From Staphylococcus phage vB_SepM_BE08, in sequence record MT596505.1: a stretch of DNA of 64,000 nt. One strand, written 5' to 3'. The position numbers and the translations under genes were made by a program. The stretch's first letter is position 1. Every line of letters begins with the position of its first letter. The notes below the pieces were generated by a model that had not been told where the DNA came from, did no database searches, and worked only from the letters and a program-made list of their open reading frames with translations. This document shows positions 722 through 45,808 of the stretch, piece after piece.

Positions 722-847
722 AAAAGTTAATCACCTTTCATCTTTTATTATATAAGGTAGGAAGTAGGGTGATTAACCCCTAAATCCTTTTAGTTTTTTT
801 ATTTATTAATTACATTGTATAATATAACACAATTTTGTATACTTTTA

Positions 848-1891: not shown

Positions 1892-1893
1892 TA

Positions 1894-2664: not shown

Positions 2665-2805
2665 AGGTTTTTACACCTCACTTGTCTAGTTAATTTTATT
2701 ATTTTCTATGTATAATATAACACTTTAAGTTTAATATAATAAAAATAACTAACTAATATGTATATTATACCACATATTAGTTAGTTTACAAAATTAATTT
2801 AATAA

Positions 2806-4536: not shown

Positions 4537-4870
4537 TTGTATTATTAAATGTTAATTCACTTATATTTTTAGGTAAATTAATTTTATATTCAAATGGTTC
4601 TTCTATATAATAAAACATTTTTTTACTTTCTGTTACTAAATCATAATCCTCTAATAATATGTTGTTGTCTTTGTCTAATAAAATAACTCTATTATCTTTT
4701 GTAGCTTCTAATATCATATACTTTTGTTTATCTATAGCAATAAATACAGCAACATGTCTTCCACCAATTTGTCTGTAATAATCAACTATTTCTATCCAAT
4801 TATCTTGCATACCTTGTTGTTTAATAAATTCTTTAGCTTCATCCCATTTACTATCTTTTGAATATATCAC
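4499..4870 (-). CDS. hypothetical protein
   Basis: 123-aa ORF, compactly spaced with its neighbours. Confidence 0.45.
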   Translation of the reverse strand: MIYSKDSKWDEAKEFIKQQGMQDNWIEIVDYYRQIGGRHVAVFIAIDKQKYMILEATKDNRVILLDKDNNILLEDYDLVTESKKMFYYIEEPFEYKINLPKNISELTFNNTIVLSVVRNGGDK

Positions 4871-5237
4871 TATTATCTTCTTCCTTTTTCGTTGCTTTTA
4901 TATTTCTCTCTTTAACGTACTTTTCCATTTTATACCATAAAAAACCAATAATAGTACCTATCGTTCCTGTTCCTACGATAACAAATGGATTATAAAAGCC
5001 ATTATATTTTTCTGTATTTTCTATAGTATTTATAACGTCTATTTTAATAATATCAGATGTTTTTTGAAACATTGAAACTAAAAAATAAAATGATACTAAT
5101 AGTATAACATAATTAATTAATTTTACAAAAAAGGATTTATTTTTTTTAGCACAAGAATATATAAGTATATATAATACACTCAAACTAAGGACAATAACTG
5201 ATAGAGAAGTTATTAAATTAAAATCTATACTGAGCAT
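4851..5237 (-). CDS. small membrane protein
   Basis: 128-aa ORF with three predicted hydrophobic helices. Confidence 0.45.
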   Translation of the reverse strand: MLSIDFNLITSLSVIVLSLSVLYILIYSCAKKNKSFFVKLINYVILLVSFYFLVSMFQKTSDIIKIDVINTIENTEKYNGFYNPFVIVGTGTIGTIIGFLWYKMEKYVKERNIKATKKEEDNSDIFKR

Positions 5238-5313
5238 ATACCCACCTCAAATATGTTATTATACTATATATAATATAACATGCAAAAAAAGGGTAGTATA
5301 TATACCCTTTAAA

Positions 5314-5805
5314 TTACTTATTATCTTCCATTAATTTCTCTTTTTCTTTTTTTAATTTTAACTCTTCTTCTTCTTTAATTCGTTGCTTTTCTTCGTAATT
5401 TTCTCTTAACATAAAGTTTAATCCTAATTGAACTTCATTTCCAGATAGTACATTACTCATATAAAAGTCTTCAATTACAATGTCACCTAAAGGAAGTGCT
5501 TTACCTTTTTTAACATCTTCTTTAATTTTCTCTGTATACTCATCTAAATTAAGACGTTTATTAAATGCAATCTCAAACATTTTATTATGATACTCACCTG
5601 TAAGCTCATCATTTAATCTTGTTTGGAATAATAACATATGTGAATCAAGTTTATTTGGTGGGTCTTGTCTAAACAAGTTTAAAGTCTCATACAGGGTAGC
5701 CATAAGTTTACAAGCTAAATCACTAAAATCCTGTAATGCTTTTTCTTTTTCTTCACCCCTAATAGGTGTAATAGATTCTTCTAATGTTAATGTATTTTTT
5801 TCCAT
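5314..5805 (-). CDS. hypothetical protein
   Basis: 163-aa ORF with an RBS (AGGAGA) upstream. Confidence 0.5.
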   Translation of the reverse strand: MEKNTLTLEESITPIRGEEKEKALQDFSDLACKLMATLYETLNLFRQDPPNKLDSHMLLFQTRLNDELTGEYHNKMFEIAFNKRLNLDEYTEKIKEDVKKGKALPLGDIVIEDFYMSNVLSGNEVQLGLNFMLRENYEEKQRIKEEEELKLKKEKEKLMEDNK

Positions 5806-5966
5806 AATAAATCTCCTTTTAATTTAATAAATCTTTTATATCTTTTTCTATTGATTTTAGTTCTCTTGCAATATTAATTTCATAAATTTTACTTTTTTCT
5901 CTTTTATAATAAAACCTAATATCAATTAAAATAAATAGTATAAGTAAAACAGTATAGACAATAAAA

Positions 5967-6770
5967 TTAAACAAAAACATCATTATCACCTACAAAATTT
6001 TGAACTTCTTTTTTAGTCATTAAATATCTATCTTTAACTTTTTTAAAACCTAGATAATCTATATAATTAATAGCTTCTTTTAATTGTATATCATATATAG
6101 ATATTGCCATTTCATTATCTATACCTAGTTTTATAAGTTCAAATATAGAACGTAATCCTACTCCGCTAGATTCTGGTGAACTAATATATGATTCTAATTT
6201 TATTTCTTTGTCATATAAATTATATTCTGCTATACCTATAACATCCTCACCGTTATTGAATACTTTATAAATAGAAGATGTTTCTTTTAAATGAGATGTA
6301 TTTACACCTTTATTTTTAAGTATAGACAAAGATGTAGCTAATCTTTCTGGATTTACTTTTTCATTTATACCACCATTATCTTCAACTGAAGAACCTATAG
6401 CTGAGTTATTATTAGTTTCAGGTTGTTTATCTTGTTGCTCTTTATCTTTTGAATTTCCGTCTTCGTAAATAGTCATTTCTACTTCTTTGCCGTTTCTAAT
6501 TACTTTACGTTTAACTTTATTCAAATTAGATAAATCTTTATCTCCGCCTTTGGTTATTTTTTCAGTATTTGATTTACAAAACAATACCATATCATAAAAG
6601 CTATTAAAACCATTTGGTTTGTATAAATGTTTATATTTTTTGTTTAATGTTTCTTCGTTATTAATAACTTCATCAAAACTAAAATATTTACCTGTAAGAA
6701 AGTATAGATTATTTTCATCCATACTTTCATTATCTTTTTTCATTATATCATAAATAAACTCATTTGTCAA
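5967..6770 (-). CDS. hypothetical protein
   Basis: 267-aa ORF between the terminase and portal genes. Confidence 0.5.
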   Translation of the reverse strand: MTNEFIYDIMKKDNESMDENNLYFLTGKYFSFDEVINNEETLNKKYKHLYKPNGFNSFYDMVLFCKSNTEKITKGGDKDLSNLNKVKRKVIRNGKEVEMTIYEDGNSKDKEQQDKQPETNNNSAIGSSVEDNGGINEKVNPERLATSLSILKNKGVNTSHLKETSSIYKVFNNGEDVIGIAEYNLYDKEIKLESYISSPESSGVGLRSIFELIKLGIDNEMAISIYDIQLKEAINYIDYLGFKKVKDRYLMTKKEVQNFVGDNDVFV

Positions 6771-6783
6771 ATTAAATCACTAC

Positions 6784-7660
6784 CTAATCTATATAATAGT
6801 TTGTATTACTATTTCCTGAATTATAATTAGTAGTAACAAAAGTAGAATTAAACGCTGTACCATTTCCTTGTTGTATTAACTGTTGTATTCGTGTTAATCC
6901 GATATTTGCATATACACTTGCCTGTGCCCAGTGGTCGTCACCTTTACGTTTAATTACTTGATACATTTCTTCTTTTTTCTCGTCTTCCTCATCCATAATT
7001 AAAACATTTTGCCAATGTTTTAAATATGTTCTAAGGTCATCATCTACTTCTTGATACATACGTATATTTTTTGTTTTTAGTCCTTGGATATAAATCTTAT
7101 TTTGCATAAGCTTATCAACAGTTACCGTATTATCTTTTTCATTAAATTTAGGTCGTAACTGTCCTGTAGAACGTGGACTGGAATTGTAAGTACATCCAAA
7201 AACTTTATCTTCTCCGAAATGGTTTATAAGTTTTAGGACATTATTACCGCTATCCCCATTATCTGCTATAATAATGTCTGGTTCATATTTAGAAATTTCC
7301 CATATAATTGTTTCTAAATCAGCTTCAACCATATTAGGTCTTGTGTTTTTCTTAACAGAAAATAATCTTATTAAATCTTTTTTACCATCAGGCAATACAC
7401 CGTGAACTGTAACCCAGTGGTGATTTCCCCAATCAATTCCTACAGAAATATAAGAATAATTACCTCTGTTAAACATTTGTTTTTTAGCAACAGGTGATTT
7501 ATTTTCAAATACATCCTCTTCAAGAACACGCATTTTAACATCTTCATAAGGCATACCTAAAGAATAGTTATAAAATGCTTGCTTAGAATCTGTGTTCATT
7601 TCTTTTTCTACTAATTGGTCTGCTGAAATCCATACAGCGTTCATTTGAGATATATAATAC
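6784..7660 (-). CDS. terL: terminase large subunit, exon 3 (C-terminal RNase H-like nuclease domain); 5' boundary approximate, frame stays open back to about 7713
   Basis: Nuclease-domain motifs (GIDWG, IIIADNGDSGNN). The reading frame continues upstream of the first Met into intron sequence. Confidence 0.7.
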
Positions 7661-9001
7661 CCTCTAATACCTGAATTATTTTTTGTTCGTTCAGGGTAAC
7701 GACATTCCCCAATTACTACCCCTAGTTTCCTAGTATTTTAAAGGGTTTAGACTATATCATGACTACTTTTTTTGGTTAGTAGTCCCTTGCTTTACATTAC
7801 TTAACATTAATTCTATTTCTTCTTTAACACTATCAAAAGTGTATTTAGTATAAGGTATTTCTAGTAAATAAAAATTATTATTTTTAGAAAATTCCTTTTT
7901 AATTCTATCATTTTTTTGTTGTTTCAAAAAATATTCTTCTCCACCAAATAACTCTACAGGCTTATAATGTTGTTGACCTTGATACTCAATTAAAACATTA
8001 TATTCAGGTAAGTAAAAATCATAAGACAGATTATTTATATTTTTTAGACCTTTGAATTTTTTCTGAGCTTCAAAATTTATATCTAAAGAGTTTAGAACAG
8101 CCTCTACCAATTTCTCACCTCTAGAATAATTGCACTTAGGACATCTTCTACCTCTATAAAACATAAAAGGATAAACTGAATACTCATTACCACATGTATT
8201 ATGTCTTATCTTTACTTTATTTTTAACGCCTGTATACTCTCCTATTAAAGTATATTCACCTTGAGTTACATACTCAATTTCTTTTTTGTACTCTTCTGTT
8301 GTTTTTAAATTATCTTTAGATAACTTATTATTAAGACAACTCTTACATTGTGTACCACTTAATAATGAGTCAGGTCTAATATAATATTCTGAACCACAAG
8401 ATAAATGCTTGACTTTTACTTTATCATTCATGGTTTTATACTCAGTTAAAACTTGATATTTGTTACCATGAATATCTTGTACTTCTTTTAAGAACTGCTC
8501 ATGAGTTTTTCTTTTATTTTTACCTTTTTTAGTATCTGAACATCTTTTGCATTTACCACTTCTCAATAAATATTTAGCTACAGGTTCAAATTCATAACCG
8601 CAAATTTTATGTTTTACTTTGATACGTGAATTTATACCATTATAAGTACTTAAAAGAATAAATTCACTATTAAATTTATCATATAATTCACTTTTAAATT
8701 CTTCATGTGTTTTCTTTTTAGTCAATATATTTCCCTCCTTACCTATTATTTTAATATTTTAATGTTAAGTAATTTTTATCTAGTTCTCACTTATTCCTTT
8801 TAATAAGCTACCTAGAAATTTAGTCGTTAGGCTTTTACTATAATATAATTATATCATATATTGTTATTTTGTCAATAATTAAATTACAGATTTAGCACGG
8901 TTGGTTCCCACTGTCTGTGTATAGTCAGATTTAGGGTTTCTTACCAGTATATTATTTTTCTATACATTATTTTACTATGCCCGTTTAACAAGGTTTTAGG
9001 T
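7661..9001 (-). other. group I intron 2 in terL (boundaries approximate), carrying a homing endonuclease ORF
   Basis: It interrupts the terL reading frame, with a stop codon right after exon 2. It contains a td-like core segment (CCGTGCTAAATCTGTAAT, AACGACTAAATTTCTAG) that is shared almost verbatim with intron 1. Confidence 0.6.
7763..8725 (-). CDS. intron-encoded homing endonuclease with repeated Cys-rich modules and a C-terminal Vsr/DUF559-like PD-(D/E)XK domain
   Basis: 320-aa ORF inside terL intron 2. Three repeats of the form KVKHxxCGxEY...C..C, plus a C-terminal motif YDFYLPEYNVLIEYQGQQHY that matches the C-terminus of the free-standing ORF at 32310..33737. Confidence 0.7.
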   Translation of the reverse strand: MTKKKTHEEFKSELYDKFNSEFILLSTYNGINSRIKVKHKICGYEFEPVAKYLLRSGKCKRCSDTKKGKNKRKTHEQFLKEVQDIHGNKYQVLTEYKTMNDKVKVKHLSCGSEYYIRPDSLLSGTQCKSCLNNKLSKDNLKTTEEYKKEIEYVTQGEYTLIGEYTGVKNKVKIRHNTCGNEYSVYPFMFYRGRRCPKCNYSRGEKLVEAVLNSLDINFEAQKKFKGLKNINNLSYDFYLPEYNVLIEYQGQQHYKPVELFGGEEYFLKQQKNDRIKKEFSKNNNFYLLEIPYTKYTFDSVKEEIELMLSNVKQGTTNQKK

Positions 9002-9004
9002 ATG

Positions 9005-9694
9005 CTAGAAAGTTAACACACCATTATACCATCTATCTAAAGGTTTACCACATTTTTGACATACATATTGGTATGTTCCATCTTGTACTGTTTTTGCTTG
9101 TTCATCAATACCTTCAGGATTAACCAATAATAAGTTACCACTTTGTTCTAAATTATTCTCATCATAAGGAGCATATTTCATCTCGTTATGATAATCACAA
9201 TGTTGACAAACATGTGCATAGTACCATTGGTCTGATTGTTGATATAATTTATGAATACCTACACCTGGAGCTGAAGGTGTTGAGAATCTTCTAACAATGT
9301 GTAATGGTGAACTTGACATAGATTCAAGTGCTGATGATTCAGCAAGTGAGTTAACACGTTCATATTCATCCATAGCTAAAAAGTCAATATCCACACCCTC
9401 AACTGAACCTGGTTTACTACTCGTTCTAAAGAATAGACTAGAGTTTCTTATTTGTTTATACCCTAAAGAATCTTTATCCCAATTTACTATATCTTTAAAA
9501 TATGATTTTTCTAAAACAGGATTAAGCCTTGACTGAACAAATTTCTTAAGTTGCTCTTGTGTTGGAAACGTATACAAACATTTTACATTTTTAAAACTAT
9601 ACATATCTGCAAAATGTACCATTTCCATTACACTCATCTCACTTAATCCAAGCTGACGTGACTTAATTACTGCTTTGTTAGGATGAGTATCATT
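9005..9694 (-). CDS. terL: terminase large subunit, exon 2 (ATPase core); boundaries approximate
   Basis: Walker A-like KSRQLGLSE lies upstream of the first Met, and Walker B-like IDFLAMDEYE is also present. The frame is open from about 9694 to the stop at 9002. Confidence 0.65.
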   Translation of the reverse strand, partial: NDTHPNKAVIKSRQLGLSEMSVMEMVHFADMYSFKNVKCLYTFPTQEQLKKFVQSRLNPVLEKSYFKDIVNWDKDSLGYKQIRNSSLFFRTSSKPGSVEGVDIDFLAMDEYERVNSLAESSALESMSSSPLHIVRRFSTPSAPGVGIHKLYQQSDQWYYAHVCQHCDYHNEMKYAPYDENNLEQSGNLLLVNPEGIDEQAKTVQDGTYQYVCQKCGKPLDRWYNGVLTF

Positions 9695-10019
9695 TCAATT
9701 ACTACCGTTACTTTCGTAATACTTTAACATTCATTTAAGAATCGGTTTAGACTATATCACAACCCTTATTTTTGGTTAAGGGTTCTCTGCTTTACGGAAT
9801 ATTATTCCTCTTATCTATTAAAATAGAAATTTAGTCGTTAGGCATTTACTATAATTCAATTATATCATACATTTTTATTTTGTCAATAATTAAATTATAG
9901 ACTTAGCACGGGATTGCCTCTATCCGTTAGGACTTAGGTTCTCTTACCAGCTTATTCATTATTCAGCTTTGCCCGTTTAACAGAGTTATTCAATACATAT
10001 TACTACATAAGGTCGCAAA
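9695..10019 (-). other. group I intron 1 in terL, about 325 nt with no ORF; boundaries approximate
   Basis: It lies between the exon 1 stop (TAA at 10020-10022) and the exon 2 frame. It has the same conserved core blocks as intron 2 (CCGTGCTAAGTCTATAAT, AACGACTAAATTTCTA). Confidence 0.55.
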
Positions 10020-10022
10020 TAA

Positions 10023-10238
10023 TTATACGATTTTAACTTGCCAAGGTCTATGTGCTTGTGCTTTACTTCTATCTCTGTTAGGTATACTAAATGTAATAGG
10101 ATGTCCTCTAAGTGTATGATATTTCAACATATAAGTACTAGGATTAAGCATATTCAATATATGGTCTAACTGTTCTCTAGTAACTTTTTTAGTTTTAAAA
10201 GTTTCCTGTGTCATTTTTATTAACTCTTTACCATCCAT
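10023..10238 (-). CDS. terL: terminase large subunit, exon 1 (N-terminus)
   Basis: 71-aa ORF (MDGKELIKMTQETF...) ending in a stop at the intron start. The reading frame resumes in exon 2. Confidence 0.65.
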   Translation of the reverse strand: MDGKELIKMTQETFKTKKVTREQLDHILNMLNPSTYMLKYHTLRGHPITFSIPNRDRSKAQAHRPWQVKIV

Positions 10239-10248
10239 AAATATCCTC

Positions 10249-10668
10249 CTAAAATGTTTCTGAGTTTTCTTGATTCATTACTTGCTCTTTTTCTGAAATC
10301 ATATTAGCTATATCGTCTGCTGATAACTCAGATAATTTTTGTAAATCTAGTTGATTACTTTCTTCACTATCACTATCTTGGTCTATAACATTTTCAAAGA
10401 GTTCTTGTTGTTTACCTGATATTTCAGGTATTGCTCCTCCACCTTCTGTAGTAGCTCCTGATAGTTCTTGCATTTGTGAGAATATAACAAAAAGCTTATA
10501 CAAATCATTAGGGTCTTTAACCTCTATTTGATTAGACTCTACTTTATTATTAAAGTCTATCATTAATTTTTGTATACTAGACATAAAACCGTCTGCTATC
10601 ATTTTTCTAGCGTCTTCTTGTTCTGATTTTTTCTTATTTACATTTGTTCTTATATCTTTAACTCCCAT
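10249..10668 (-). CDS. hypothetical acidic protein immediately upstream of terL
   Basis: 139-aa ORF with a 10-nt gap to terL exon 1. Confidence 0.5.
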   Translation of the reverse strand: MGVKDIRTNVNKKKSEQEDARKMIADGFMSSIQKLMIDFNNKVESNQIEVKDPNDLYKLFVIFSQMQELSGATTEGGGAIPEISGKQQELFENVIDQDSDSEESNQLDLQKLSELSADDIANMISEKEQVMNQENSETF

Positions 10669-10672
10669 AATA

Positions 10673-10936
10673 TCACACCAATCCTAAATTTTTATAACAC
10701 GTGTTAATGTCTTGACAAATATCTATATACAGAAGATTGGAGTATCTTATGTGATAGTGATTCTTTTTTGCAAATACTTGACCGTTACTATACTTCATTC
10801 CAGACAAAGGTTCTCCACAAATACCACATACTCTAGTAGGACTAGATATTCTCTTATCACCTTTTCTAATAAGTGTTTTTTTAGGTGCGTCTTTAAAAAT
10901 ACTTCGTCTCTTCTCTTTAATATCTATCTTCTTCAC
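10673..10936 (-). CDS. hypothetical basic protein with a Cys-rich C-terminus
   Basis: 87-aa ORF containing a CxxC motif. It is compactly spaced with neighbours, but the start is uncertain. Confidence 0.35.
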   Translation of the reverse strand: MKKIDIKEKRRSIFKDAPKKTLIRKGDKRISSPTRVCGICGEPLSGMKYSNGQVFAKKNHYHIRYSNLLYIDICQDINTCYKNLGLV

Positions 10937-11288
10937 GTTTTAATCTTTCCTTTACTTTAGCTCTTACTTTTACTTCTTCATAAGATACACCTAATTGCTC
11001 TTCTATTACTTCTTTCATTATCTCTACTTCTTCTCTAGTAACATTTGTTTCTTTTAAAATGTATTCTGGTAGAGGGTCTTCTTTCTTTAAGTATATCTTA
11101 TCTATAAAGTTTGAGCTAGTATATGATAATGCTATACCTGTTATAGCATATATAAGTACTGCTTGAGGTCTTAAACTAAATAGTATTGAAAGTACATTTG
11201 CTATAGATAGTAGTAAAATCAACAAATCTAATACTATTAAAAACTTAAATATAAAATATTTCATGTTATTAGTCAAAATATTTGTCAC
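10917..11288 (-). CDS. small membrane protein
   Basis: 123-aa ORF with two N-terminal TM helices. It is the first gene of the leftward operon. Confidence 0.45.
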   Translation of the reverse strand: MTNILTNNMKYFIFKFLIVLDLLILLLSIANVLSILFSLRPQAVLIYAITGIALSYTSSNFIDKIYLKKEDPLPEYILKETNVTREEVEIMKEVIEEQLGVSYEEVKVRAKVKERLKREEDRY

Positions 11289-11686
11289 TTCCTAATGTTA
11301 AAAAATGTAATACATATACTAATCTAACAAAAAGGTCTTACTATGTTATATTATTGTTGTAATAAAAAATATAACTAATAGGGGTTGCTATATAATGTCA
11401 ATATTATTATTAATAGTATCACTACCCCTTGTCTTTTTTTACTTTACATCAATATCAAGATTAAACTATAGGATAGCTAAAGATATAGTATATAAAAATA
11501 ATATAAATTTACTAAAAAATATTATTTTTATTTTTTTTATATACTTACTATCTATATGTAATCTATATTTTATATTTACACATAAATTATTACCTATTGT
11601 ATGTATGAATTTAGTTATTTTATTATCTGTTGTTATTGTCTTTTTAACCCATGATTAAATAAAAAATTAAGGAGGGTTGTTTTGAA

Positions 11687-12010
11687 GTGACAAAATACAA
11701 AGATATTTTAAAAGTAGAATTTGTGGATGCATTAGCTCACTTTGATACTAATAGAGAGTACTTCCATATTTATCGAATCACTAGGTTACTATCTAATGGC
11801 TCTATTATTTCATTCGATTATTATTACCTTCCTTCCGATGACCCTAATATAGTTAATATAGAGATAGATTTAAAAGAGTTCGGTAAATTAAGATTTGCTA
11901 TTGATGTTAAAACTTCTTATGGTAAAATAGTATCTGAAAAGCATAATAAAGTCATCCAGAATTTTATAGAAAATTATGATGTTCACTCTGTAGCCCCGTT
12001 GAAAGTTTAG
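11687..12010 (+). CDS. hypothetical protein (GTG start)
   Basis: The RBS AAGGAGGG lies 9 nt upstream of the GTG. 107-aa ORF. Confidence 0.5.
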   Translation: MTKYKDILKVEFVDALAHFDTNREYFHIYRITRLLSNGSIISFDYYYLPSDDPNIVNIEIDLKEFGKLRFAIDVKTSYGKIVSEKHNKVIQNFIENYDVHSVAPLKV

Positions 12011-12020
12011 GTGAAAGAAA

Positions 12021-12353
12021 TTGGAAAACGACATTGATACACTATTAAATCAAATAGATAAAATAAGAAATCAAATACAAGAAAAAGGCTACATTGATAA
12101 AGATACTTATTCAAACCTAGAAAAAGAAGTTTCAGAATTACGTAGTATGATTCTTAACCTAGATAAAGATTTAGCTGTTACTAGTGAGAAGCAATCAACA
12201 ATCTATATACAATTAGAAAGATTAGATGAAAAAATAAAAGAATTATCTGAAAGTACAAAGGTAAAAGACGATAAGAAACGTGATACTACAGAAAAAGTAT
12301 TACTTTTGATACTAGGTGCAATATTATCGTTTATATTCAATAAATTTAGTTAG
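12021..12353 (+). CDS. coiled-coil protein with a C-terminal TM helix (TTG start)
   Basis: 110-aa ORF with an AGGTGA RBS upstream. Confidence 0.45.
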   Translation: MENDIDTLLNQIDKIRNQIQEKGYIDKDTYSNLEKEVSELRSMILNLDKDLAVTSEKQSTIYIQLERLDEKIKELSESTKVKDDKKRDTTEKVLLLILGAILSFIFNKFS

Positions 12354-12363
12354 GAGAGTTTTT

Positions 12364-12573
12364 ATGGTAAAATCAATTGAATTAACAATGAATAGTGGTA
12401 AAACATTCTTTTTAATAAGTACTGAAGATGAAAAATACACTCATTCTTCCGTGAACGCAATGTTAAGAGGAAAAAGTAACCCTTCTATAAAAGTCCATAC
12501 TAGTAATGATATTAATTCTGATGTGGTTTATATTAACCCTTTCTTTATTGAATCATTTAAGATTAATTATTAA
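12364..12573 (+). CDS. hypothetical protein
   Basis: ATG preceded by an RBS (TTAGGAGAG). The upstream Met shown in the ORF track is rejected because it overlaps the previous gene. Confidence 0.4.
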   Translation: MVKSIELTMNSGKTFFLISTEDEKYTHSSVNAMLRGKSNPSIKVHTSNDINSDVVYINPFFIESFKINY

Positions 12574-12680
12574 AGGCTAACTTATGTTAGTCTTTTTTTA
12601 TATATCTATTATACCATAAACATCTTGAATATTAAAATTAAACTATCTCAATTTCCAACACTACTAAATATTAATTATTT

Positions 12681-12862
12681 ATTGTTAATATATTTATTAT
12701 TAATAATTAGTATTAGTATATATAAATATATATATATTAGAGTAATCCTTATTTTCCAAATATACAAATTACCTAAATATTCAGAATTCTTTTTCCTTAT
12801 ATATAAATATTGTTAATATATTTGTTATTAATAATTAGTATTAGTATATATAAATAATAGTT
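12681..12862. repeat. two copies of a direct repeat of about 50 bp (ATTGTTAATATATTT[A/G]TTATTAATAATTAGTATTAGTATATATAAATA) in an extremely AT-rich intergenic region
   Basis: Copy 1 is at about 12681-12730 and copy 2 at about 12812-12862. Confidence 0.7.
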
Positions 12863-12962
12863 ATTAGAACTGGTCTTATTTGCCAAATAGTTAAAAAAAC
12901 CTCTAAAACACTTGATATTAAAGGATTTTAATCAAAAATTTAAAAAAGTTTATAAAAAGTGT

Positions 12963-12992
12963 TGACATTTATCAAAAATAAGATTATAATAA
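12963..12992 (+). promoter_or_regulatory. sigma-70-like promoter (TTGACA, 17 nt, TATAAT)
   Basis: TTGACATTTATCAAAAATAAGATTATAAT, located upstream of 13032. Confidence 0.6.
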
Positions 12993-13031
12993 ACTTAACA
13001 ATAAAAAATTAAGAAAAGGATTTGATTAAGT

Positions 13032-13253
13032 ATGAGAAAACAAGTAATGGTATATTCAAAACTAAATTGTAAAGAATGTGGGAACCACTTTATGGTTCCT
13101 AGAAAAAGAGCAAAAAGAAGAGAAGAAGGTCATATCAAAGACTTATATTGTGTAAAATGTAAAAAAACAACAAAACATATTGAGGATAACAGAAGTGAAA
13201 CAGAAAAATTCTGGGATGAATTCCATTCAAATAGAAAATATCAAAAAAATTAA
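13032..13253 (+). CDS. small zinc-ribbon protein (two CxxC pairs)
   Basis: 73-aa ORF containing CKEC...CVKC. An RBS (AAAAGGA) is present. Confidence 0.5.
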   Translation: MRKQVMVYSKLNCKECGNHFMVPRKRAKRREEGHIKDLYCVKCKKTTKHIEDNRSETEKFWDEFHSNRKYQKN

Positions 13254-13283
13254 TAAAAAATTTAAAAAAGTTTTAAAATAAAC

Positions 13284-13312
13284 TTGACACAGGGTTATTT
13301 TTATGTTATGAT
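13284..13312 (+). promoter_or_regulatory. consensus sigma-70-like promoter (TTGACA, 17 nt, TATGAT)
   Basis: TTGACACAGGGTTATTTTTATGTTATGAT, with no ORF downstream. Confidence 0.6.
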
Positions 13313-13319
13313 ATATGTA

Positions 13320-14135
13320 TCAAATAAAACAAATCCCTTACACAACTGTTTTTTCATTACGTTGTTTTCCAGTTCAAACAATAACAGCGTTTGCCTATAA
13401 CTAATGATTAGACTATAAACAAATCAAGAGGAAATTAGTCTATTCCTCTAATATAATTTTAATACAACTAAACATCTGAACATAGTGACTGAATAAGTGA
13501 GTGATGTCACTAAGGTGTAAGAATGTCTTAGGAAGCCTACTAAAGTGTGAGAACCTTTAGAGGTATCCTCAGAGGGATATTTATTCCGAAAGGATTGCTT
13601 AGCACTTGGATATAAGGATTATACGGTAGAGAGACTATCAGTGATGAATCACTAGTCAAGGTCTTAGCGGAATCTTGACTAGTTACGCTACTAAAATCAT
13701 TTACGTGGTTGGAGCCTAGAAATAGGTTTGATAATGATTGTCTTTCGTACAAGTAGCACAAACCCACGATAAAGCTAAAGAAAACAAAAAATATATGTTA
13801 TTTTAATTCTTCACATCGTGTGAAAGTTGGTAAGTAACTGTCCTTACCCCTATACTGTGGAAACACTCATAAAAGTGGACTATGGCTAGCTACCATATAG
13901 AACTTTCTATGACTAGGTTACCTAATAATAATTCTTATATTTTAGTTCCCTGTGAAAAGGGCTATGTTTGGATATTTAGTTGTATTATACAACTAACTTC
14001 TCTTTCATTTTATTATTCTTATCAATGGTTTTTGACTCCTTTACCATTGATAGAGAGAAACCCCTTATAAGAACATATTCATTTGTACAAACAAACACCT
14101 CCTTATAAAAAACAAAAAACTTATAAGGGGTTTTT
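13320..14135 (+). ncRNA. candidate structured non-coding transcript of about 800 nt, or a long leader, running from the promoter to the terminator
   Basis: No credible ORF on either strand. GC content is locally higher than the flanks. Strong hairpins are present (ACTAGTCAAG...CTTGACTAGT, GAGGAA..TTCCTC). It is bounded by a consensus promoter and a hairpin plus T-run terminator. Confidence 0.3.
14062..14135 (+). terminator. rho-independent terminator with a long stem (CCCCTTATAAG...CTTATAAGGGG followed by TTTTT)
   Basis: 11-bp inverted repeat followed by a T-run. Confidence 0.55.
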
Positions 14136-14240
14136 ACATACACATAACCCTAATAACCTGAATATAATTTGCTTGATATTTATATTCAAAAAAAAATAAG
14201 GTAAGTACTTTTTAAAGGTTTTTGTCTCACCTATACATAA

Positions 14241-14606
14241 ATGAAAAAAGGAATTGTTATTGTGGCAAAGAAAAAAACATTAGCTCAAAAAACATATGAA
14301 GATACAGTAAAAGCTAGAAGATGGTTTGCAGGTACTCGAAATGAATTTAATACAGCAAGAGCAAAAAAGAAAAATACTGAAGCTTTTTTAAAACAATCAA
14401 AAGAAGATATTAAAACAGCTAGTGAAAAAGGTAGATTTAGTTGTATATTGTATTATAAAGTATTTAAGTTTAAAGAACCTGTAGAAGGGTATAATAAACA
14501 AGAAATATTATCAGCACTTAAAGAGTTGGATAAAGAAGGATTTAAAACAACATATGAGGATACTCAAGATGGTGTATTAGTGAGTGCTAGATGGGATAAC
14601 GAATAA
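14241..14606 (+). CDS. hypothetical basic protein
   Basis: 121-aa ORF rich in K and R. Confidence 0.5.
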   Translation: MKKGIVIVAKKKTLAQKTYEDTVKARRWFAGTRNEFNTARAKKKNTEAFLKQSKEDIKTASEKGRFSCILYYKVFKFKEPVEGYNKQEILSALKELDKEGFKTTYEDTQDGVLVSARWDNE

Positions 14607-14820
14607 ACAAAAAGGAGTTTTTAATATCGCTACTCAAAAACAACTTTACTTTGTAAATGGACTAATAGGTAAAGCTATTGTTAATGACAAAGTATTAAAT
14701 AAAAGAGATTTATGGAATCAGTTAGACTTATTAAATGATACTAAATTAGAAGACTTAGATAATAAACAAATGTCAAATGTTATTAGTAAATTAAATGAAA
14801 TTAATAATGATATAGAATAA
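14584..14820 (+). CDS. hypothetical protein
   Basis: 78-aa ORF. It overlaps the previous gene, so the start is uncertain. Confidence 0.35.
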   Translation: MLDGITNKQKGVFNIATQKQLYFVNGLIGKAIVNDKVLNKRDLWNQLDLLNDTKLEDLDNKQMSNVISKLNEINNDIE

Positions 14821-14918
14821 CCACCTATTTATGTAGGTGGTTTTCTTATATTAAAATAATTAACGCTTTTTTTGTTATATTAGTTAGTACAAAAATATAA
14901 TAGAAAGGGCGTTTTTTA

Positions 14919-15482
14919 ATGTCTAATAAAGATATGAAAAAACCTACTGTTGTAGGTGGTGTAAACTTATCCACACGTGTACGCAGTAAGACTTTTTGGG
15001 TATCACTTGTAGGTATACTAGTTGGTGTAGTTACTCAAGTAGGTACACTTTTTGGTCTTGATTTAGAAGACCAAGTAGGACAATACTCTGAATTAGCTAC
15101 AGGTATTATTACAGCTTTAGGTATTTTAGGTGTTTTACAAGACCCTAATACTAAAGGAATTAAAGATAGTGGTATTGCACAAACATACACTTCTCGTAGA
15201 GATAGTAAAGACCCTGAACAAGCAATAGATTGGCAAAATAATACAGAATTTGATTTAGGTGTAAAGAAACCTCAAGAGTTTGATACTTCTGAATCTTTCT
15301 CTGATGATAGTGATGAAGAAGAAGTAGATTTAGAAGAAGAAGAAGTAGCTAAAGATGATTCTGTACAAGAAGACACAAATAAACCCCTTGGAGCTGGAAA
15401 AGGAGAGTCTGTAGACTCTATGAAAAACACACCTCTAAATGTAGGTAGTCAATCAGCTAAATCAAAAGGCGGTGAAAAATAA
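14919..15482 (+). CDS. holin
   Basis: 187-aa ORF with two TM helices (FWVSLVGILVGVVTQVGTLFGL, ATGIITALGILGVL) and a charged C-terminal tail. It sits immediately upstream of the endolysin. Confidence 0.75.
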   Translation: MSNKDMKKPTVVGGVNLSTRVRSKTFWVSLVGILVGVVTQVGTLFGLDLEDQVGQYSELATGIITALGILGVLQDPNTKGIKDSGIAQTYTSRRDSKDPEQAIDWQNNTEFDLGVKKPQEFDTSESFSDDSDEEEVDLEEEEVAKDDSVQEDTNKPLGAGKGESVDSMKNTPLNVGSQSAKSKGGEK

Positions 15483-31385: not shown

Positions 31386-31640
31386 ATGCGTTTATATCAA
31401 GCAGAACACGATAATTGTGAGCAATATGAAGACAATTATTCTTATAGAGAAAATAAAGCTTATACAAATAAGGATAACTTAATTAAACGTATTAAAGAAG
31501 AAGGGTACGAAGAAAAAAGAAGCGGTTACCTTCAAGATGGGTACATTTATTACCATAAAGATAATATAGAAGATGTACCTCTTTTTAAGGAAGATATGAT
31601 TATAATCCATGAATTAGAAATTGTTAAAGAAAATACTTAA
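31386..31640 (+). CDS. hypothetical protein
   Basis: 84-aa ORF, translationally coupled to the previous gene. Confidence 0.45.
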   Translation: MRLYQAEHDNCEQYEDNYSYRENKAYTNKDNLIKRIKEEGYEEKRSGYLQDGYIYYHKDNIEDVPLFKEDMIIIHELEIVKENT

Positions 31641-33737: not shown

Positions 33738-34039
33738 TTAATATTTCTCCTTATTATTTTTTATCCTAGGTATAGTATAATATAACAAAAATTAACGGGG
33801 AAGGGTATGAGTACATAAGAAAGTTATTTATTATTTTTTTTGTTGACTTTTGTAGATTATAGTTTATTTTTAAGGTGGTTTATAGGGAACCTGAGGTAGG
33901 TATACTAGGGTATTATTACACCCCTTGTTTATGGCAATTTATAACGGGGCGTATATATAAAAAAATTATACAATATCATAGATATATTAATTCACTCTTT
34001 AACTATTCCTTTTTATATTTATTTATAAAAATTTTTTTA

Positions 34040-38442: not shown

Positions 38443-39122
38443 ATTCCCTTCAAATTCTATAATTTTTTTATTTAATTTCTTTAGGTTAGAAGCGGTTGAC
38501 CGCTTCCTTAACCTTACAATTATATAATATCATAGTTTCAAGTGACTGTCAACACTTTTTAAAAAATTAATTCTTTTTCTTTTTTACTATCCATATACAT
38601 TTTTATTTCACAACATAACCAAAGTGTTATCATTTGTAACAACCCCTAATTAATAATTTTTTTATATAATTCTTGTAAGGTTTGTTATTTCTTTCCCTTA
38701 CAACTATTATATTACTACACATTAAAACCAATTGCAACCCCTAAATGCAAATTTTTTTAAGAAAAAAAATAATAAAAAAGTTGGTAAAACCCCTTTACAA
38801 ATACCGTAGAATTTGTTATTCTATATATAGAAAGAAAGCGGTGACCTGCATCCATGTCCGCTATATAAATGAAGTTGTAGGGGGAAAGACCAACCCTAAA
38901 CCTTTTTATATAAAAAAGTTATTTAATTTTATTTTTATATTAAAAAAAGATTCCCACTCTATTATAGCATTTTTAATATAATATTGTCAAGTGTTAATTT
39001 TACACCTTTATTTTTATTATATAATTTTTTTATATAAATTTAAAAAATAAAAAACCTAGGAATTTAATCCTAGGCTTAATATTATTTAATATAATTTTTT
39101 TTTATTTAATTCAGAAGCGGTA

Positions 39123-39404
39123 TTATTTAACCGCTTCTATTTCCTTAACTGTTTCTAGTGCCCATTTGATAGTTTCTTCAATGTTGTAGCTTTGGAACAC
39201 TACACCGCCACCGAACCATTTGGCAGTGTACTTTTTAAAACCGTATAGCTTGTTAATATCGTCATAATCCCAAAGGCTAATACCTAGGTCGCTAAAGTGT
39301 ACTACATATCTAGGGTTTCCGTTATTATCATTTTCAATTCTGAACACTGTAATCTCGTTTCCATTTACTGTCACTGTTTCTTCATATTTAAAATTCTTTT
39401 TCAT
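39123..39404 (-). CDS. hypothetical protein
   Basis: 93-aa ORF with an early promoter at about 39499. Confidence 0.5.
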   Translation of the reverse strand: MKKNFKYEETVTVNGNEITVFRIENDNNGNPRYVVHFSDLGISLWDYDDINKLYGFKKYTAKWFGGGVVFQSYNIEETIKWALETVKEIEAVK

Positions 39405-39607: not shown

Positions 39608-39925
39608 TTAAATTATTTCATCAAAAACAATTTCCCCGTTATCAATAACGATAACGCCACCTTGTACAATAAAGAAAGTTAACCCTTTATATTCCCGTGC
39701 TATTCCGTAATCATAAGGCGTTTTACCAAATAGCTTATTTCTTTTATAAAAAGTAATATCTTCACTATATAAGCCACTAGGTACATGTACAGTCAATTCT
39801 GGATGCCAACCTGTACCCCCTAAATCGTTTCGGTATAAGTTTTTGGACTTATAACCATCATAACCAAATGTTTCCATTATATTATTTGCAATTAATTCTA
39901 TATTATTTTTATACAATATTATCAA
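39608..39925 (-). CDS. hypothetical protein
   Basis: 105-aa ORF. Confidence 0.45.
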   Translation of the reverse strand: MIILYKNNIELIANNIMETFGYDGYKSKNLYRNDLGGTGWHPELTVHVPSGLYSEDITFYKRNKLFGKTPYDYGIAREYKGLTFFIVQGGVIVIDNGEIVFDEII

Positions 39926-40501
39926 TTCCTTTCTGTGAATTACTGTAATTATATATTACCATTTATCTTATGATTAATCAATAGATTTACATGAATTTAT
40001 TTAAATTTTTTTATTGGTCTGTTTTCTACTATTATATGAAGAAACTGGAAAATAGGTTAAAATAAAATTAGATTGTGTACAACAAGATCTCACCATAAAA
40101 AAATTATTCTATAAAAAAATTATAGAAATATAATGTACCTGTCATGATCCATTTATAAACAGAAATAAGGTGTAAAATTGCCTATTGATTTTGAACATGG
40201 TTTATTATATAATGGAAGTGATGACTATCTTTAAGTTAATAAATATATTATATAAAAAAATTATATAATACCCTTTTTTTATAACCCACCCACCACTCCA
40301 ATTATTATGTTAAGGCATTTTTGCCAATTTGTCAAGAGGTAAATTTTACACTTTTTTCTTTTGTAAATAGTGTAAAATTGCCCTAAAAACTTTTAAAATT
40401 ATATTTACAAATACGGTAATATGCTGTAATATATTAAGTGTAGTAAGCAAGGGAAACAAATTCCCACTACAAATATTATATAAAAAAGGAATTGATTAAA
40501 A

Positions 40502-40723
40502 ATGAAAAACGTTAAAAATTTAAAAAATTGGTTAAAAAGAAATGATTATGATTTTGAAGAATACAACACGCCAGACGGTTGTGGGAGCACATTGAAAGGG
40601 ATTATCATTCATAACATTGAATTTGCTACTGAGAATGATGAACTAGTTGCTCTATTCCCTGATGGTGATTATGAACACATGACAAACAGACAAGCTTATA
40701 ACTTTATAAGAAAAAACATTTAA
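40502..40723 (+). CDS. hypothetical protein
   Basis: 73-aa ORF with RBS AAAGGAATTGA and an upstream promoter (TTTACA, 17 nt, TAATAT). Confidence 0.45.
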   Translation: MKNVKNLKNWLKRNDYDFEEYNTPDGCGSTLKGIIIHNIEFATENDELVALFPDGDYEHMTNRQAYNFIRKNI

Positions 40724-40755
40724 TAAAAAAATTAATTAAAAAGGAATGAATTATA

Positions 40756-40956
40756 ATGACACATATTAAAGTAGATAAAAGAAAATCATTAAATAAAAAT
40801 ATAAAAGAAAATGGATTAAAAAAAGAATTAAATAAAAATAGTGGAAAAATAAAAATAAAAGAAAGTTTATTAAGAAAAGCAAAAAGAAATAATGATATAG
40901 AAAAAATTAATAAACTAGAAAATGAATTAAAAAAATTATATAATCAATTAGACTAG
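40756..40956 (+). CDS. hypothetical lysine-rich protein
   Basis: 66-aa ORF with RBS AAAGGAATGA. It is followed by a terminator (GACTAGGGAAAACCCTAGTC followed by T5). Confidence 0.4.
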   Translation: MTHIKVDKRKSLNKNIKENGLKKELNKNSGKIKIKESLLRKAKRNNDIEKINKLENELKKLYNQLD

Positions 40957-41009
40957 GGAAAACCCTAGTCTTTTTATGTTCTATATCTTATATCTTTTTT
41001 AGGGGAAAT

Positions 41010-41186
41010 CCGTACGATACTACTTGCTATTTTTAGGGGAAAATCGACACCAGACTACTTGAAACAACTAGCCTTTTTCATACAATACTACTTACTAATT
41101 ATGTATATTTATAAGAATATTTGAATAAAATTCATGCAATACTACTTACATTATATAGTTAATATATAAACAATACTACTTGAATA
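41010..41186. repeat. five direct repeats of ATACTACTT(G/A) spaced 32-52 bp apart (iteron-like)
   Basis: Copies at about 41015, 41053, 41085, 41137 and 41173. An inverted GTAGT lies just downstream at 41197. Confidence 0.6.
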
Positions 41187-41734
41187 TATAATAGTATTCA
41201 GGAAGGTAGTGGGTAGATTAACCCCCTAGTATTAAAAAAGATATTAATACTAGAGCTAAATCATATTTCAGTTTAGGCTAGGTCTAGTTTCATTTTTGTT
41301 AATATTTTTACACGCACTCTTATCCACGCAACCTAACTTAATAGGTTAATACTACCCCGTTCATATTGAACCTAAGAGTCCTCCCTGTCCTTTATTGCTT
41401 GGTAGACACCACCAACTATGGTAGAAGGTATAGTGTATCTATACCTACAAAGTATAAGCATTGCATATCTTATACCCGCCCTGTGAGTTTTATGCAGGTG
41501 CTCGTGGCTCACTATCACCACATCATTGTCGCTATTCCTATAGGTTCCTATGCATGACCTATACTCATCAGCTCTTTATCTTATTGTACTTATACTATAC
41601 CATACTTTTAATATCAGGTCAAGTAAAAAATGATAACTTTTACTTATTACTTATTATAAGTTTATCTTATTGTAAATAAAACCTTTTTGAAATTTTTGAG
41701 TACCCTATTGTAAAAATTTTTAAGGGGGTATCAT

Positions 41735-41826
41735 CCTAAATTTTTTAAGGTCTTCATCCTAAAAAAATAAGACCGCTTCATCCTATTTAAGTGAAGCGGT
41801 TTAACCTAAATATACTTCATCTTAAA
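41735..41826. repeat. four direct repeats of TTCATCCTA spaced 18-37 bp apart, plus a hairpin ACCGCTTCA..TGAAGCGGT, immediately upstream of a plus-strand promoter
   Basis: ATCATCCTAAA, CTTCATCCTAAA, CTTCATCCTATTT and CTTCATCTTAAAA. Confidence 0.55.
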
Positions 41827-41832
41827 AAATTA

Positions 41833-41861
41833 TTGACAATCTAATTATCCTATAGTATAAT
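41833..41861 (+). promoter_or_regulatory. sigma-70-like promoter (TTGACA, 17 nt, TATAAT)
   Basis: TTGACAATCTAATTATCCTATAGTATAAT. Confidence 0.55.
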
Positions 41862-41903
41862 TAACTTAACAAATTAAATTTATTAAGAAAGGAGTTAATA
41901 CAT

Positions 41904-41984
41904 ATGATTAACTTTTTAATTGGAGTATTTGTAGGTGGAACATTAGTATTAATCGAGAATGTAATTATGAATAAATATATGTAG
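41904..41984 (+). CDS. 26-aa hydrophobic peptide
   Basis: MINFLIGVFVGGTLVLIENVIMNKYM, with the RBS AAGGAG 8 nt upstream. Confidence 0.3.
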   Translation: MINFLIGVFVGGTLVLIENVIMNKYM

Positions 41985-41995
41985 GAGTGATACAA

Positions 41996-42181
41996 ATGTC
42001 TTTAAGTACATTATTTGGAACTATAGGAGTTATTTTATTAGCAATTGTATTTTTAATAGTGACTATTGAAGCTATTATTGAATTAATAAAAGAGAAAATG
42101 TATATACAGTTAGTTATTTTCTTATTATTAGTATTAGGTTTAATATCATTAATATTAGCATCTATATTCAAATATTATTAA
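41996..42181 (+). CDS. 61-aa membrane peptide with two TM helices
   Basis: RBS AGGAGTGA. It is followed by a terminator (AAGCGGTTAATATACCGCTT followed by T7). Confidence 0.4.
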   Translation: MSLSTLFGTIGVILLAIVFLIVTIEAIIELIKEKMYIQLVIFLLLVLGLISLILASIFKYY

Positions 42182-42268
42182 TTTCATTTGAAGCGGTTAA
42201 TATACCGCTTTTTTTAATACATAAAAATAAGACCACTCATTTGAAGTGGTCTTATTAGTATACTTATA

Positions 42269-44839: not shown

Positions 44840-45221
44840 TACTACATGGACTATACATTAGAATAGTTTAACTATATATTAGAACAATTGAATAGTATAT
44901 CAGAATAGTTGAGTACCGCTTCAGTAATATAGAAGCGGTACTTTTTTGTTTATTATTAAGTTGTATACAATAGTAATGTAATGTTTAAATATACTATAGT
45001 AGTAATATAAATAAATTATAGTAAACAGGTAACGTCAAAACAGGTCAAGACAACGAATAGGACAGACAAAAAAATCCTAGGGTAATTGGTTTACTTTTTT
45101 CTTTTTTTCTATATACTTTTAATTTTTCCTTATTTATACTATATGGTTTTCTTCTCTCCTTTTATCTCCTCTCTTCTACTTTTTTAAATAACTCTACCTA
45201 CATATCTATTTTTTTATCTAT

Positions 45222-45246
45222 ATATATATATATATATATATATGTC
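45222..45246. repeat. (TA)12 dinucleotide microsatellite
   Basis: CTATATATATATATATATATATATATG. Confidence 0.9.
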
Positions 45247-45392
45247 TATATACTTTATTCCTCCCTTTTAATAATCAAAGAGTAATAATACAAAGAATAG
45301 GAGTTTTATTTATATATTAATAAGTAATAAGTAATTAGTTTCTTTTTTCCTTGGTTTTCTTTTTTTTTCTTATTTTATTTAAAGTCAACATT

Positions 45393-45413
45393 ATTATTAT
45401 TATTATTACTATA
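45393..45413. repeat. (ATT)7 trinucleotide microsatellite
   Basis: CATTATTATTATTATTATTAC. Confidence 0.85.
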
Positions 45414-45808
45414 CCTCATCCCTATTTCTTCTATATTACTTTATTAATAAAACCCCTATATATACTACTTATACATAAGGGTCTTTACTTATATTATTCT
45501 TATTCTACTTGTACATACTTACTTAACTGATAAATAATTTTTTTATGTTATTCTATTCATAATTATTTACTATATAATTTAGCTAAAGTTTCAAGCGGTA
45601 ATTCAATTAATTCCCCACTAAATAATAAATCTTTTACTTTTTTAGGTACAGATACATGATAATCTAAGTTTAAACTATTTATGATTTCACTAGCTTTCCA
45701 GTTTAATTCAATTTTATACATAGAATTTTCTCTAACCTTTTGATGTAACTTTTTAATAAGTTCTGGTTTATGAGTTAAATGTTGAAACTATGCCTAATGA
45801 TTTTAATT

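Follow-up and report, generated by a model that had tools for sequence, protein, structure and literature searches.

A probable structured non-coding RNA gene in the gene-free intergenic stretch of Staphylococcus phage vB_SepM_BE08

Stand-alone, highly structured RNAs transcribed from an abundant promoter are known from several mobile elements, among them the ROOL, GOLLD and HEARO RNAs and the lnc and snc RNAs of phage K. A structured phage RNA gene may also lie near terminal sequences, as does that for the pRNA of phi29, which is essential and forms part of a protein-primed podovirus motor, whereas Twort-like phages rely on a terminase. The Twort-like phages of staphylococci rank among the foremost candidates for phage therapy, and their early and terminal-repeat regions are mostly unexplained; for phage K, lnc001, lnc002 and the snc RNAs have been reported, with small RNAs in the terminal-repeat region (PMC9241854). 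Here we analyse a gene-free stretch of about 0.9 kb (40978-41862) in a 64,000-nucleotide (nt) segment of the Staphylococcus phage vB_SepM_BE08 (MT596505.1), called the window below. The core of this stretch, read on the minus strand from 41582 to 41349, is very probably a gene for a structured non-coding RNA. We consider it probable that the stretch as a whole is a small intergenic control region centred on this independent RNA gene, accessory and trans-acting rather than an essential replication origin, and we hold the combined statement to this degree because its core claims are the demonstrated ones.

Compared with the systems above, the RNA is likewise stand-alone and structured, with its own promoter on a mobile element. 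It differs from ROOL, GOLLD and HEARO in having no match in Rfam, in being shorter (about 240-390 nt) and in not lying beside tRNA genes. Among the structured RNAs of mobile elements, a kind of feature that is known, it forms a new family. The likeness to phi29 pRNA, by analogy a phage structured RNA gene near terminal sequences with loop-mediated tertiary pairing, stops at the point that the RNA described here is absent from close relatives.

The DNA of the window is that of a Sepunavirus, one of the Twort-like myophages that infect Staphylococcus epidermidis. By BLAST, its identity is 99.5% to vB_SepM_BE25 and 97-99% to Terranova, Twillingate, phiIPLA-C1C and phages 80A, 80B and 110. Beyond these phages, the segment 41374-41674 keeps 74-80% DNA identity in CF5 (Silviavirus-like), in the PG-2021_10 group and in Baoshanvirus (BS1, BS2, Golestan101, JDF86 and PSU4). 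Homologues of the RNA are found in at least four Twortvirinae lineages, each in an unannotated gap of about 1 kb, and pattern scans returned further copies from IMG/VR and metagenomes. A preliminary description of this DNA had taken the stretch mainly for a replication origin and had offered a non-coding RNA in the GC-rich core as its fallback. The fallback is the reading that the data favour, with a conserved promoter, covariation, strand-specific G-U pairs and no conserved open reading frame (ORF). The comparison with related phages that had been proposed as a check was carried out: the core is conserved, and helices within it covary.

A covariance model of the core (R1; 232 positions, 57 pairs) scored 255.6 bits at the core in the window and 175-257 bits over 19 phage copies (18 other loci). 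RNAalifold, run on 11 sequences, returned 49 pairs, 18 of them with compensatory changes. The pairing was then counted in the 13-sequence R1 alignment for a 64-pair structure that includes two pseudoknots: 90.3% of the cells pair compared with 80.2% in shuffled alignments, and double changes occur in 25 of the 64 pairs as against 15.0+/-2.0 in the shuffles, a value that none of 500 shuffles reached. The covariation score was 0.296, compared with 0.136 in shuffles. When the partners were slid by 1-3 columns as a control, pairing fell to 37-45%, with only 2-5 double-change pairs.

The best-supported helices are Pa, Pb, H2 and Pd. Five of the seven pairs of Pa covary (UAUAGGU/ACCUAUA, GAUAGAA/UUCUAUC and UACACAU/AUGUGUA), as do three of the four pairs of Pb. 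Hairpin Pf was misregistered by MAFFT and its pairing was read by eye; by lineage it appears as GUUCA/UGAAC, GAUUA/UAAUC, GAUUC/GAAUC, UGUAC/GUACA and UGUGC/GCACA. The two predicted pseudoknots, Pk and Pk2, are supported by the alignment, Pk2 showing U-A, A-U and G-U at one position. A kink-turn was also considered for the internal loop AUGAG/GGAA; the register misfits the standard 3-nt bulge followed by G-A/A-G, and a tandem sheared G-A loop is possible there.

The sense of the RNA is the minus strand, because the invariant G-U pairs at columns 14-49 and 164-209 would become A-C mismatches on the other strand. Relative to shuffles, the fold z-score of a 396-nt stretch is -3.3 on the minus strand versus -1.5 on the plus strand. 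In the alignment the -35 element, the 17-nt spacer, the TGn and the -10 element of the RNA promoter, which is of the sigma-70 type, are preserved in all lineages, with the variants TTGACA/TATATT in CF5, TTGACT/TATAGT in PG-2021_10 and TTTACA/TATACT in BS1, and BS1-type phages have a second promoter copy upstream. From the position of the promoter, the RNA would start near 41587. Two copies of a further sequence bracket this promoter (Table 1), and TTATCTTAT is kept in part in PG-2021_10 and CF5.

Toward the 3' end, the RNA probably runs on to about 41205 in Sepunavirus and CF5-type phages. Identity to CF5, at 80%, reaches down to 41185; within the extension GGGGUAGUAUUAACC pairs with GGUUAAUCUACCC in a long-range helix, and a CUAG-hairpin-GGGG motif recurs in all aligned lineages with differing inner stems. 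In BS1-type homologues a covarying hairpin is followed by UUUAAAC. A terminator scan found no canonical minus-strand terminator between 41349 and 40971, and the first hairpin that minus-strand transcription would reach on leaving the RNA and the adjoining repeats is that at 40950-40971.

In the scheme that we propose, host sigma-A RNA polymerase would transcribe the RNA early, once the DNA enters the cell. The transcript would span the lineage-specific 3' domain to about 41205 and possibly continue, as a tail of AAGUAGUAU repeats, to the hairpin at 40971. It would fold into a compact pseudoknotted body that leaves the conserved, unpaired, G-rich AAAGGNCAGGGNGG and GGGGNAG free for binding. As an accessory RNA that binds a protein or a ligand, it would work in trans, its target being a protein of the host or of the phage. 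By analogy, the functional class could be that of a host-take-over or counter-defence RNA, a tentative assignment to which we give somewhat less than an even chance.

Several points count against this interpretation. The alignment covers only some six independent lineages whose common ancestry inflates the shuffle statistics, and the 13 sequences that were counted had been fitted to R1; these statistics thus overstate independence, while the slid controls are unaffected. H1, Pe and most of Pk2 are invariant, hence neither supported nor contradicted, and Pb, Pk and H5 cross one another, so that not all three can be confirmed together. The promoter alone places the 5' end, and for the 3' end no convincing terminator was found. 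The trans-acting function would follow from context (an early variable region and dispensability) and from analogy. Finally, the related elements that lie beside parA on plasmids with no typed replicon, described below, would fit a replication role better.

Table 1. Positions of the RNA gene and of the other features of the gene-free stretch (window coordinates; a dot stands for no assigned strand)
Feature	Position	Strand	Details
RNA core (very probable), about 234 nt	41349-41582	-	helices H1, H2, Pa, Pb, H5, Pc, Pd, Po, Pe, Pf and pseudoknots Pk, Pk2
RNA promoter	41594-41622	-	TTGACC, 17 nt, TGgTATAGT (extended -10); promoter scan 10/12 with TG
RNA 3' extension (inferred)	41205-41348	-	CUAG/CUAG-closed hairpin 41253-41226, G-run 41225-41221
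Repeat family 1	41017-41181	-	five (C/U)AAGTAGTAT copies (ATACTACTT on plus); motif scans
Inverted copy AATAGTATT	41190-41198	+	pairs with last repeat, 41173-41181, giving an A/U-rich hairpin
Hairpin terminator	40950-40971	.	ends convergent + strand genes 40502-40956; annotated terminator in Terranova and SEP1
Two copies of TATCTTATTGTA	41577-41588 and 41663-41674	.	bracket RNA promoter at about +5 and about -75
Repeat family 2, (C)TTCATCCTA(AA)	41730-41824	+	41753 and 41777 exact; 41730 and 41816 one mismatch; motif scan
Minus-strand intrinsic terminator	41772-41800	-	ACCGCTTCA..TGAAGCGGT then CUUAUUUUUUU; overlaps one TTCATCCTA copy
Consensus sigma-70 promoter of rightward small genes	41833-41861	+	TTGACA-17-TATAAT; scan 12/12
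Two small hydrophobic-peptide genes (26 aa; 61-64 aa)	41904-41984; 41987/41996-42181	+	swappable cassette

The layout of the stretch agrees in most respects with what had been reported from the letters alone. Its core is indeed richer in G+C, at 0.38-0.44 across 41300-41600 compared with 0.12-0.30 on either side, and a perfect TTGACA-17-TATAAT promoter is present at 41833. A pair of flanking terminators had been listed as well; the hairpin at 40950-40971 stands, whereas in the second, at 41772-41800, it is the minus strand that carries the U-run. With two divergent promoters and three terminator-like hairpins within 900 nt, the label of a regulatory hub is a fair one.

Automatic annotation in some records places one or two small proteins in the core, where plus-strand ORFs do exist at 41366-41557 and 41461-41679; examples are BE25_0239/0240 and the 'putative membrane protein' entries Terranova_012 and Twillingate_011. 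That the core encodes such proteins is extremely unlikely. The ORFs begin with TTG, have no ribosome-binding site and match no PHROG family, in line with the earlier remark that only implausible ORFs cross the core. The frames are not conserved: the longest open ones switch strand and frame from lineage to lineage, indels in the core are mostly of 1 nt, and the substitutions are without 3-nt periodicity. Most records carry no annotation over the core. Twillingate_011/Terranova_012 (41554-41676, plus strand, 41 aa) runs antisense to the RNA across its promoter and 5' end and is probably not a gene. Under the name Twillingate gp11, this ORF was one of six candidate anti-CRISPR genes ('gap 1') (PMC11662646); a tblastn search of the window found no homologue of AcrIIIA1 (Twillingate gp17). 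A conserved, pseudoknotted RNA with a strong promoter of its own appears as a new player in the early and terminal-repeat region of these phages, one that several records mis-annotate as small 'membrane protein' ORFs.

The RNA also failed to match described RNA families. At the gathering score, Rfam 15 gave no match in the whole window, and at E<=10 the segment 40700-42300 gave chance-level matches only, none of them on the core; five homologous loci and the plasmid element described below likewise had no Rfam match. The Rfam 15 models for hammerhead, group I intron, ROOL, GOLLD, HEARO, 6S, SRP, tmRNA and T-box did not recognise the core, a tRNA/tmRNA scan found nothing, and the literature available contained no account of such an RNA.

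Another possibility is that the core is the relic or the target of a mobile element, namely a degenerate group I intron or ribozyme linked to the homing endonuclease that can occupy the same slot. Group I introns are frequent in Twort-like phages, an HNH endonuclease gene stands in place of the RNA module in SEP1 and Quidividi, and conserved CUGAUGAG and GGAAUAG segments lie on both sides of hairpin Pa, where CUGAUGAG...GGAA recalls a hammerhead core. This explanation is nevertheless very unlikely, as no intron or ribozyme family matched even at E<=10, and the RNA has its own promoter and interrupts no gene. A hammerhead ribozyme in particular was examined and rejected. The 3' strand reads GGAAU and not GAAA, and the hammerhead core is ruled out because CUG (columns 12-14) and UAG (columns 49-51) pair together in the covarying helix H2.

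The structured RNA gene occupies a slot that is mosaic among close relatives. SEP1 and Quidividi share the window up to 41093/41047 and again from 41793/41822; between these points they carry a minus-strand gene for an HNH homing endonuclease, and they are without 41094-41792. Twillingate, Terranova and C1C carry the RNA, which is thus present in some and absent from others (SEP1, Quidividi) of a set of near-identical therapeutic phages, and this difference offers an easy loss-of-function comparison. Neither nhmmer nor the covariance model found the RNA in phage K within 1-15000 and 138800-140400. Because the HNH gene replaces the module in close relatives and phage K is without it in the parts searched, the RNA is unlikely to be an essential replication element. 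As a separate observation, the HNH gene (Quidividi_011, L002:2434-3381; SEP1_141, L006:2434-3012, truncated) fills the slot of the RNA module exactly, and its left junction falls within the repeat array. This pattern suggests an endonuclease-driven replacement of the RNA gene. To the left of the RNA gap in the Baoshanvirus phage phiSA_BS1, the segment L007:200-651 recurs at 90-96% identity in some 240 records of Staphylococcus phages, Kayvirus among them; this widely conserved early gene beside the Baoshanvirus RNA slot carries the RefSeq label 'ribosome associated inhibitor A; zinc finger domain'.

The preliminary description had preferred iterons around an origin core. If the stretch were an origin, the repeats would be sites for an initiator; or else the host polymerase would make the RNA as a primer or origin transcript like ColE1 RNAII, and its G-rich segments would form a persistent hybrid from which leading-strand synthesis starts. 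As in iteron origins (plasmid origins, lambda ori), clustered direct repeats do adjoin A+T-rich DNA and promoters here. What sets the locus apart is that its repeats are short and degenerate, its core is a structured RNA, the module is dispensable, and no initiator gene adjoins, the neighbouring ORFs being small proteins of unknown function (ORF list, PHROG). A search of the stretch did not yield the set expected of such an origin, that is, at least three near-identical iterons of 17-22 bp with an initiator nearby, and essentiality with conservation in close relatives, which an iteron origin would show, was not observed either. SEP1, Quidividi and phage K replicate without the module, and since close relatives dispense with it, an essential origin is unlikely. 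Families 1 and 2 are not plasmid-type iterons, and we give the origin in either form only a slender chance.

What bears most on a replication role lies outside the phages. Sequence collections were scanned with the pattern CCCTGNCCTTT..GGTAG..CACC. Six of the non-phage matches share 5-7 of the seven unconstrained positions while the other 15 share 0-4, and three of the six also have a hairpin and then GGURG at the spacing seen in phages. The resulting 3' domain, GGUG-N4-C(U/G)ACC, a spacer, A(A/C)NGGNNAGGGNGG, 7-8 nt, a hairpin of 4-6 bp and GGU(A/G)G, is common to all phage lineages and plasmid subtypes; its phage form is GGUG-N4-CUACC, AAAGGNCAGGGNGG, hairpin and GGURG. The pseudoknot position that covaries in the phages (U-A, A-U, G-U) covaries in the plasmids too (A-U, G-C).

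The plasmid element is about 500 nt long, conserved and evidently structured. It was found in Enterococcus faecalis, E. hirae, E. mundtii, E. lactis, E. faecium and Virgibacillus (loci L060:3790-4330, from E. faecalis pJXZ076-25K; L059, L061, L063-L067, L035:7000-8083 and L032:2100-3600), and a Vagococcus plasmid is listed by BLAST only. In the cases examined it sits in a gene-free gap of about 1 kb, pointing away from parA at some 0.5 kb upstream of that gene, with the exception of an E. faecium plasmid (L066) whose element lies in a gap not beside parA. Tandem iterons flank it (ATATGATAAAAGATAA, or GTATTCAA in another subtype), and the metagenomic contig L032, which has parA together with phage-like genes, shows the same arrangement. 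Full-length R1 scored 18.5 bits on L035 and L060, with hairpins in equivalent places, and 3.2 bits on L059, which belongs to another subtype. From these comparisons it is likely that the phage RNA and the plasmid element share the 3' domain, while full homology is unproven.

A typed replicon was present in one (pY3-3) of the six carrier plasmid records for which typing was retrieved, a count drawn from incomplete tables, and no theta-type initiator was found beside parA on the one carrier plasmid inspected in full. In pLS20, a plasmid of Bacillus, a Rep-less origin of 1.1 kb adjoins the partition operon, and a 1.3-kb gene-free gap next to alp7A was confirmed there. ColE1 RNAII and the pLS20 origin would resemble the present RNA, by analogy, in being structured RNAs of several hundred nt that carry conserved G-runs and are made by the host polymerase. 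They differ in that the phage copy is accessory and shows no similarity to the pLS20 gap; a plasmid sequence profile (nhmmer) found neither the phage RNA nor that gap. No usable literature was found on DUF5388 plasmids or MOBT single-strand origins. It is a long shot that the phage RNA is a branch of a wider family of pseudoknotted RNAs on Firmicutes mobile elements, one whose plasmid members are the replicon itself, as a primer or origin RNA. If this were true, the plasmid RNA would be a Gram-positive counterpart of ColE1 RNAII or of a pLS20-type origin, captured by a phage beside repeats of the terminal-repeat type. The elements beside parA, which include those of optrA-carrying enterococcal resistance plasmids, suggest a shared mobile-element RNA module with a possible role in replication, maintenance or counter-defence.

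Beyond the putative 3' end of the RNA gene lies repeat family 1. Its five copies had been described as evenly spaced; the number holds, whereas spacings of 35, 33, 54 and 34 nt make the evenness only approximate. On the plus strand ATACTACTT is exact at 41017, 41085, 41139 and 41173 and AGACTACTT stands at 41052, corresponding to minus-strand starts at 41025, 41060, 41093, 41147 and 41181. Four of the six exact ATACTACTT copies of the 64-kb window are in this region, although both repeat motifs were picked from the region under study and window-wide chance estimates are accordingly post hoc. The first two copies lie in longer units of 32-35 nt, TTTTTTAGGGGAAAT..ACTACTTG, which open with TTTTTTAGGGGAAA and carry TTTTTAGGGGAAA; conserved 9-nt cores are embedded in units that are 62-75% identical. 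The inverted GTAGT noted after the last direct copy is present, as part of AATAGTATT. Similar repeats flank the RNA in PG-2021_10, and SEP1 and Quidividi retain family 1 without the RNA; since the repeats persist without it, they form, in part at least, a DNA feature in their own right. They may be DNA sites for a phage protein, or a transcribed 3' tail of the RNA.

The repeats could alternatively mark the left junction of the long terminal repeat (LTR), as a physical genome end or a packaging-recognition site. The LTR would then extend from about 41016 leftward to about 33.88 kb, or some 7.1 kb, and the RNA would be the last gene before it; this explanation covers the repeats only and is compatible with the RNA gene. 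Repeats of 12 bp at the LTR boundaries of phage K have been documented (PMC6022877, citing Lobocka 2012). The left junction of K, which was derived experimentally, has three ACTAAGTACC repeats spaced by 35 nt, the last abutting the LTR start. In the 16.6 kb of K that was examined, AAGTACC occurs three times directly ahead of the LTR start; a single inverted copy stands at the right boundary, and there is one further site (14456). Like the K repeats (TAAGTACCTGGG/CCCAGGTACTTA system), those of family 1 are built on AAGTA, recur with a period of some 34-35 nt, lie on the same strand with respect to gene order and have TTTTTNGGGGAAAA next to them; the units are alike too, with TAAGTAGTATTGTATG in the window and TAAGTACCTTTGTTATG in K. 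Within the window TTTTWGGGGAAAA occurs only at 40997 and 41031, and within K 1-15000 only beside the right LTR boundary.

Gene order is also in keeping with such a junction. The K map is inverted relative to the window (tblastn): K gp011 (TreK) corresponds to 39123-39404 and K gp010 to 39608-39925, both on the minus strand, and 31386-31640 on the plus strand corresponds to K gp022, the first gene past the right terminal-repeat boundary of K. By these matches the locus sits among small early genes of the terminal-repeat type, and, with the window inverted, the TreK/gp010 homologues lie leftward of the array. A homologue of the K right boundary is found at 33.85-33.99 kb. In the raw SPAdes contig of BE25 (OQ355703.1), a 77-nt overlap of the ends falls exactly on 41017-41093, with both ends on repeat edges. 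We note separately that this overlap opens with the first base of copy 1 of the repeat and closes with the last base of copy 3, which is too precise for the random opening of a circle, and that window 33845-33990 on the minus strand reads GGGGTGTAATAATACCCTAGTATACCTACCTCAGGT...AAAGTCAACA, as a homologue of the K right terminal-repeat boundary. Judged by this similarity, 33845-33990 is probably one LTR boundary of BE08.

Other observations speak against placing the left junction at family 1. Unlike the K junction, the array has five degenerate copies, one 54-nt gap and no clear inverted partner: there is no exact inverted repeat copy at 33.9 kb, where plus-strand AAGTAGT is missing and only a degenerate AGGTAGGTAT occurs. 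The break in BE25 may be an arbitrary opening of a circular assembly. DNA homologous to the K LTR, K 5095-3081 at one end and K 1675-472 at the other, flanks the RNA and repeats of PG-2021_10, which puts the module inside a K-type terminal repeat in that phage. Small early-type genes with consensus promoters run on to 45.2 kb. At 45.38-45.56 kb, just ahead of a long same-strand run of genes, AAGTA repeats cluster a second time, together with TGTTGACT, and this context matches that of the K junction better. In a longer record of phiSA_BS2, a search for the duplicated flanks that would mark an LTR found each flank once, and the literature yielded no published Sepunavirus termini. We regard the junction at family 1 as possible though rather unlikely; the array nevertheless provides a concrete hypothesis for the Sepunavirus genome termini, which are still unmapped. 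The stretch 45200-45560, itself gene-free, contains a microsatellite of the (AT)n type, a copy of AAAGTCAACA in the opposite orientation to that at 33.85 kb, and AAGTA-type repeats on the plus strand at 45433, 45462 and 45502; a long minus-strand run of genes follows it, making it an alternative candidate for the left LTR junction.

On the other side of the RNA gene, repeat family 2 sits in the 210-nt spacer between the divergent promoters. Four copies had been counted, of which two are exact and the other two have one mismatch; exact TTCATCCTA occurs nowhere else in the window. No equivalent was found in the alignment of CF5, PG-2021_10 and BS1, so that the family is lineage-specific. Its copies may serve as operators of the divergent promoters. 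The hairpin at 41772-41800 ends a leftward gene in Terranova-type phages, in which homology to the window stops at 41802 by Terranova_011 (minus strand).

Terranova-type phages share 40000-41802 with the window, and beyond this point another cassette replaces the consensus promoter and the two small peptide genes. The two tiny hydrophobic peptides reported downstream of the promoter are there, their ORFs preceded by AGGAG and GGAG ribosome-binding sites, and in Quidividi and SEP1 their slot is labelled 'membrane protein'. The cassette, 41803-42267, consists of the promoter, the two peptide genes and two terminators, with breakpoints at 41802 and 42268, and its counterpart in Terranova-type phages has a leftward gene.

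Outside the stretch, a further gene-free segment (38817-39106) adjoins the TreK homologue and has 73% identity over 295 nt (E = 3e-46) to the K intergenic region 4850-5170, where a strong promoter lies and the small RNA snc002 has been reported. From this similarity, 38817-39106 may be a second conserved non-coding element of the window.

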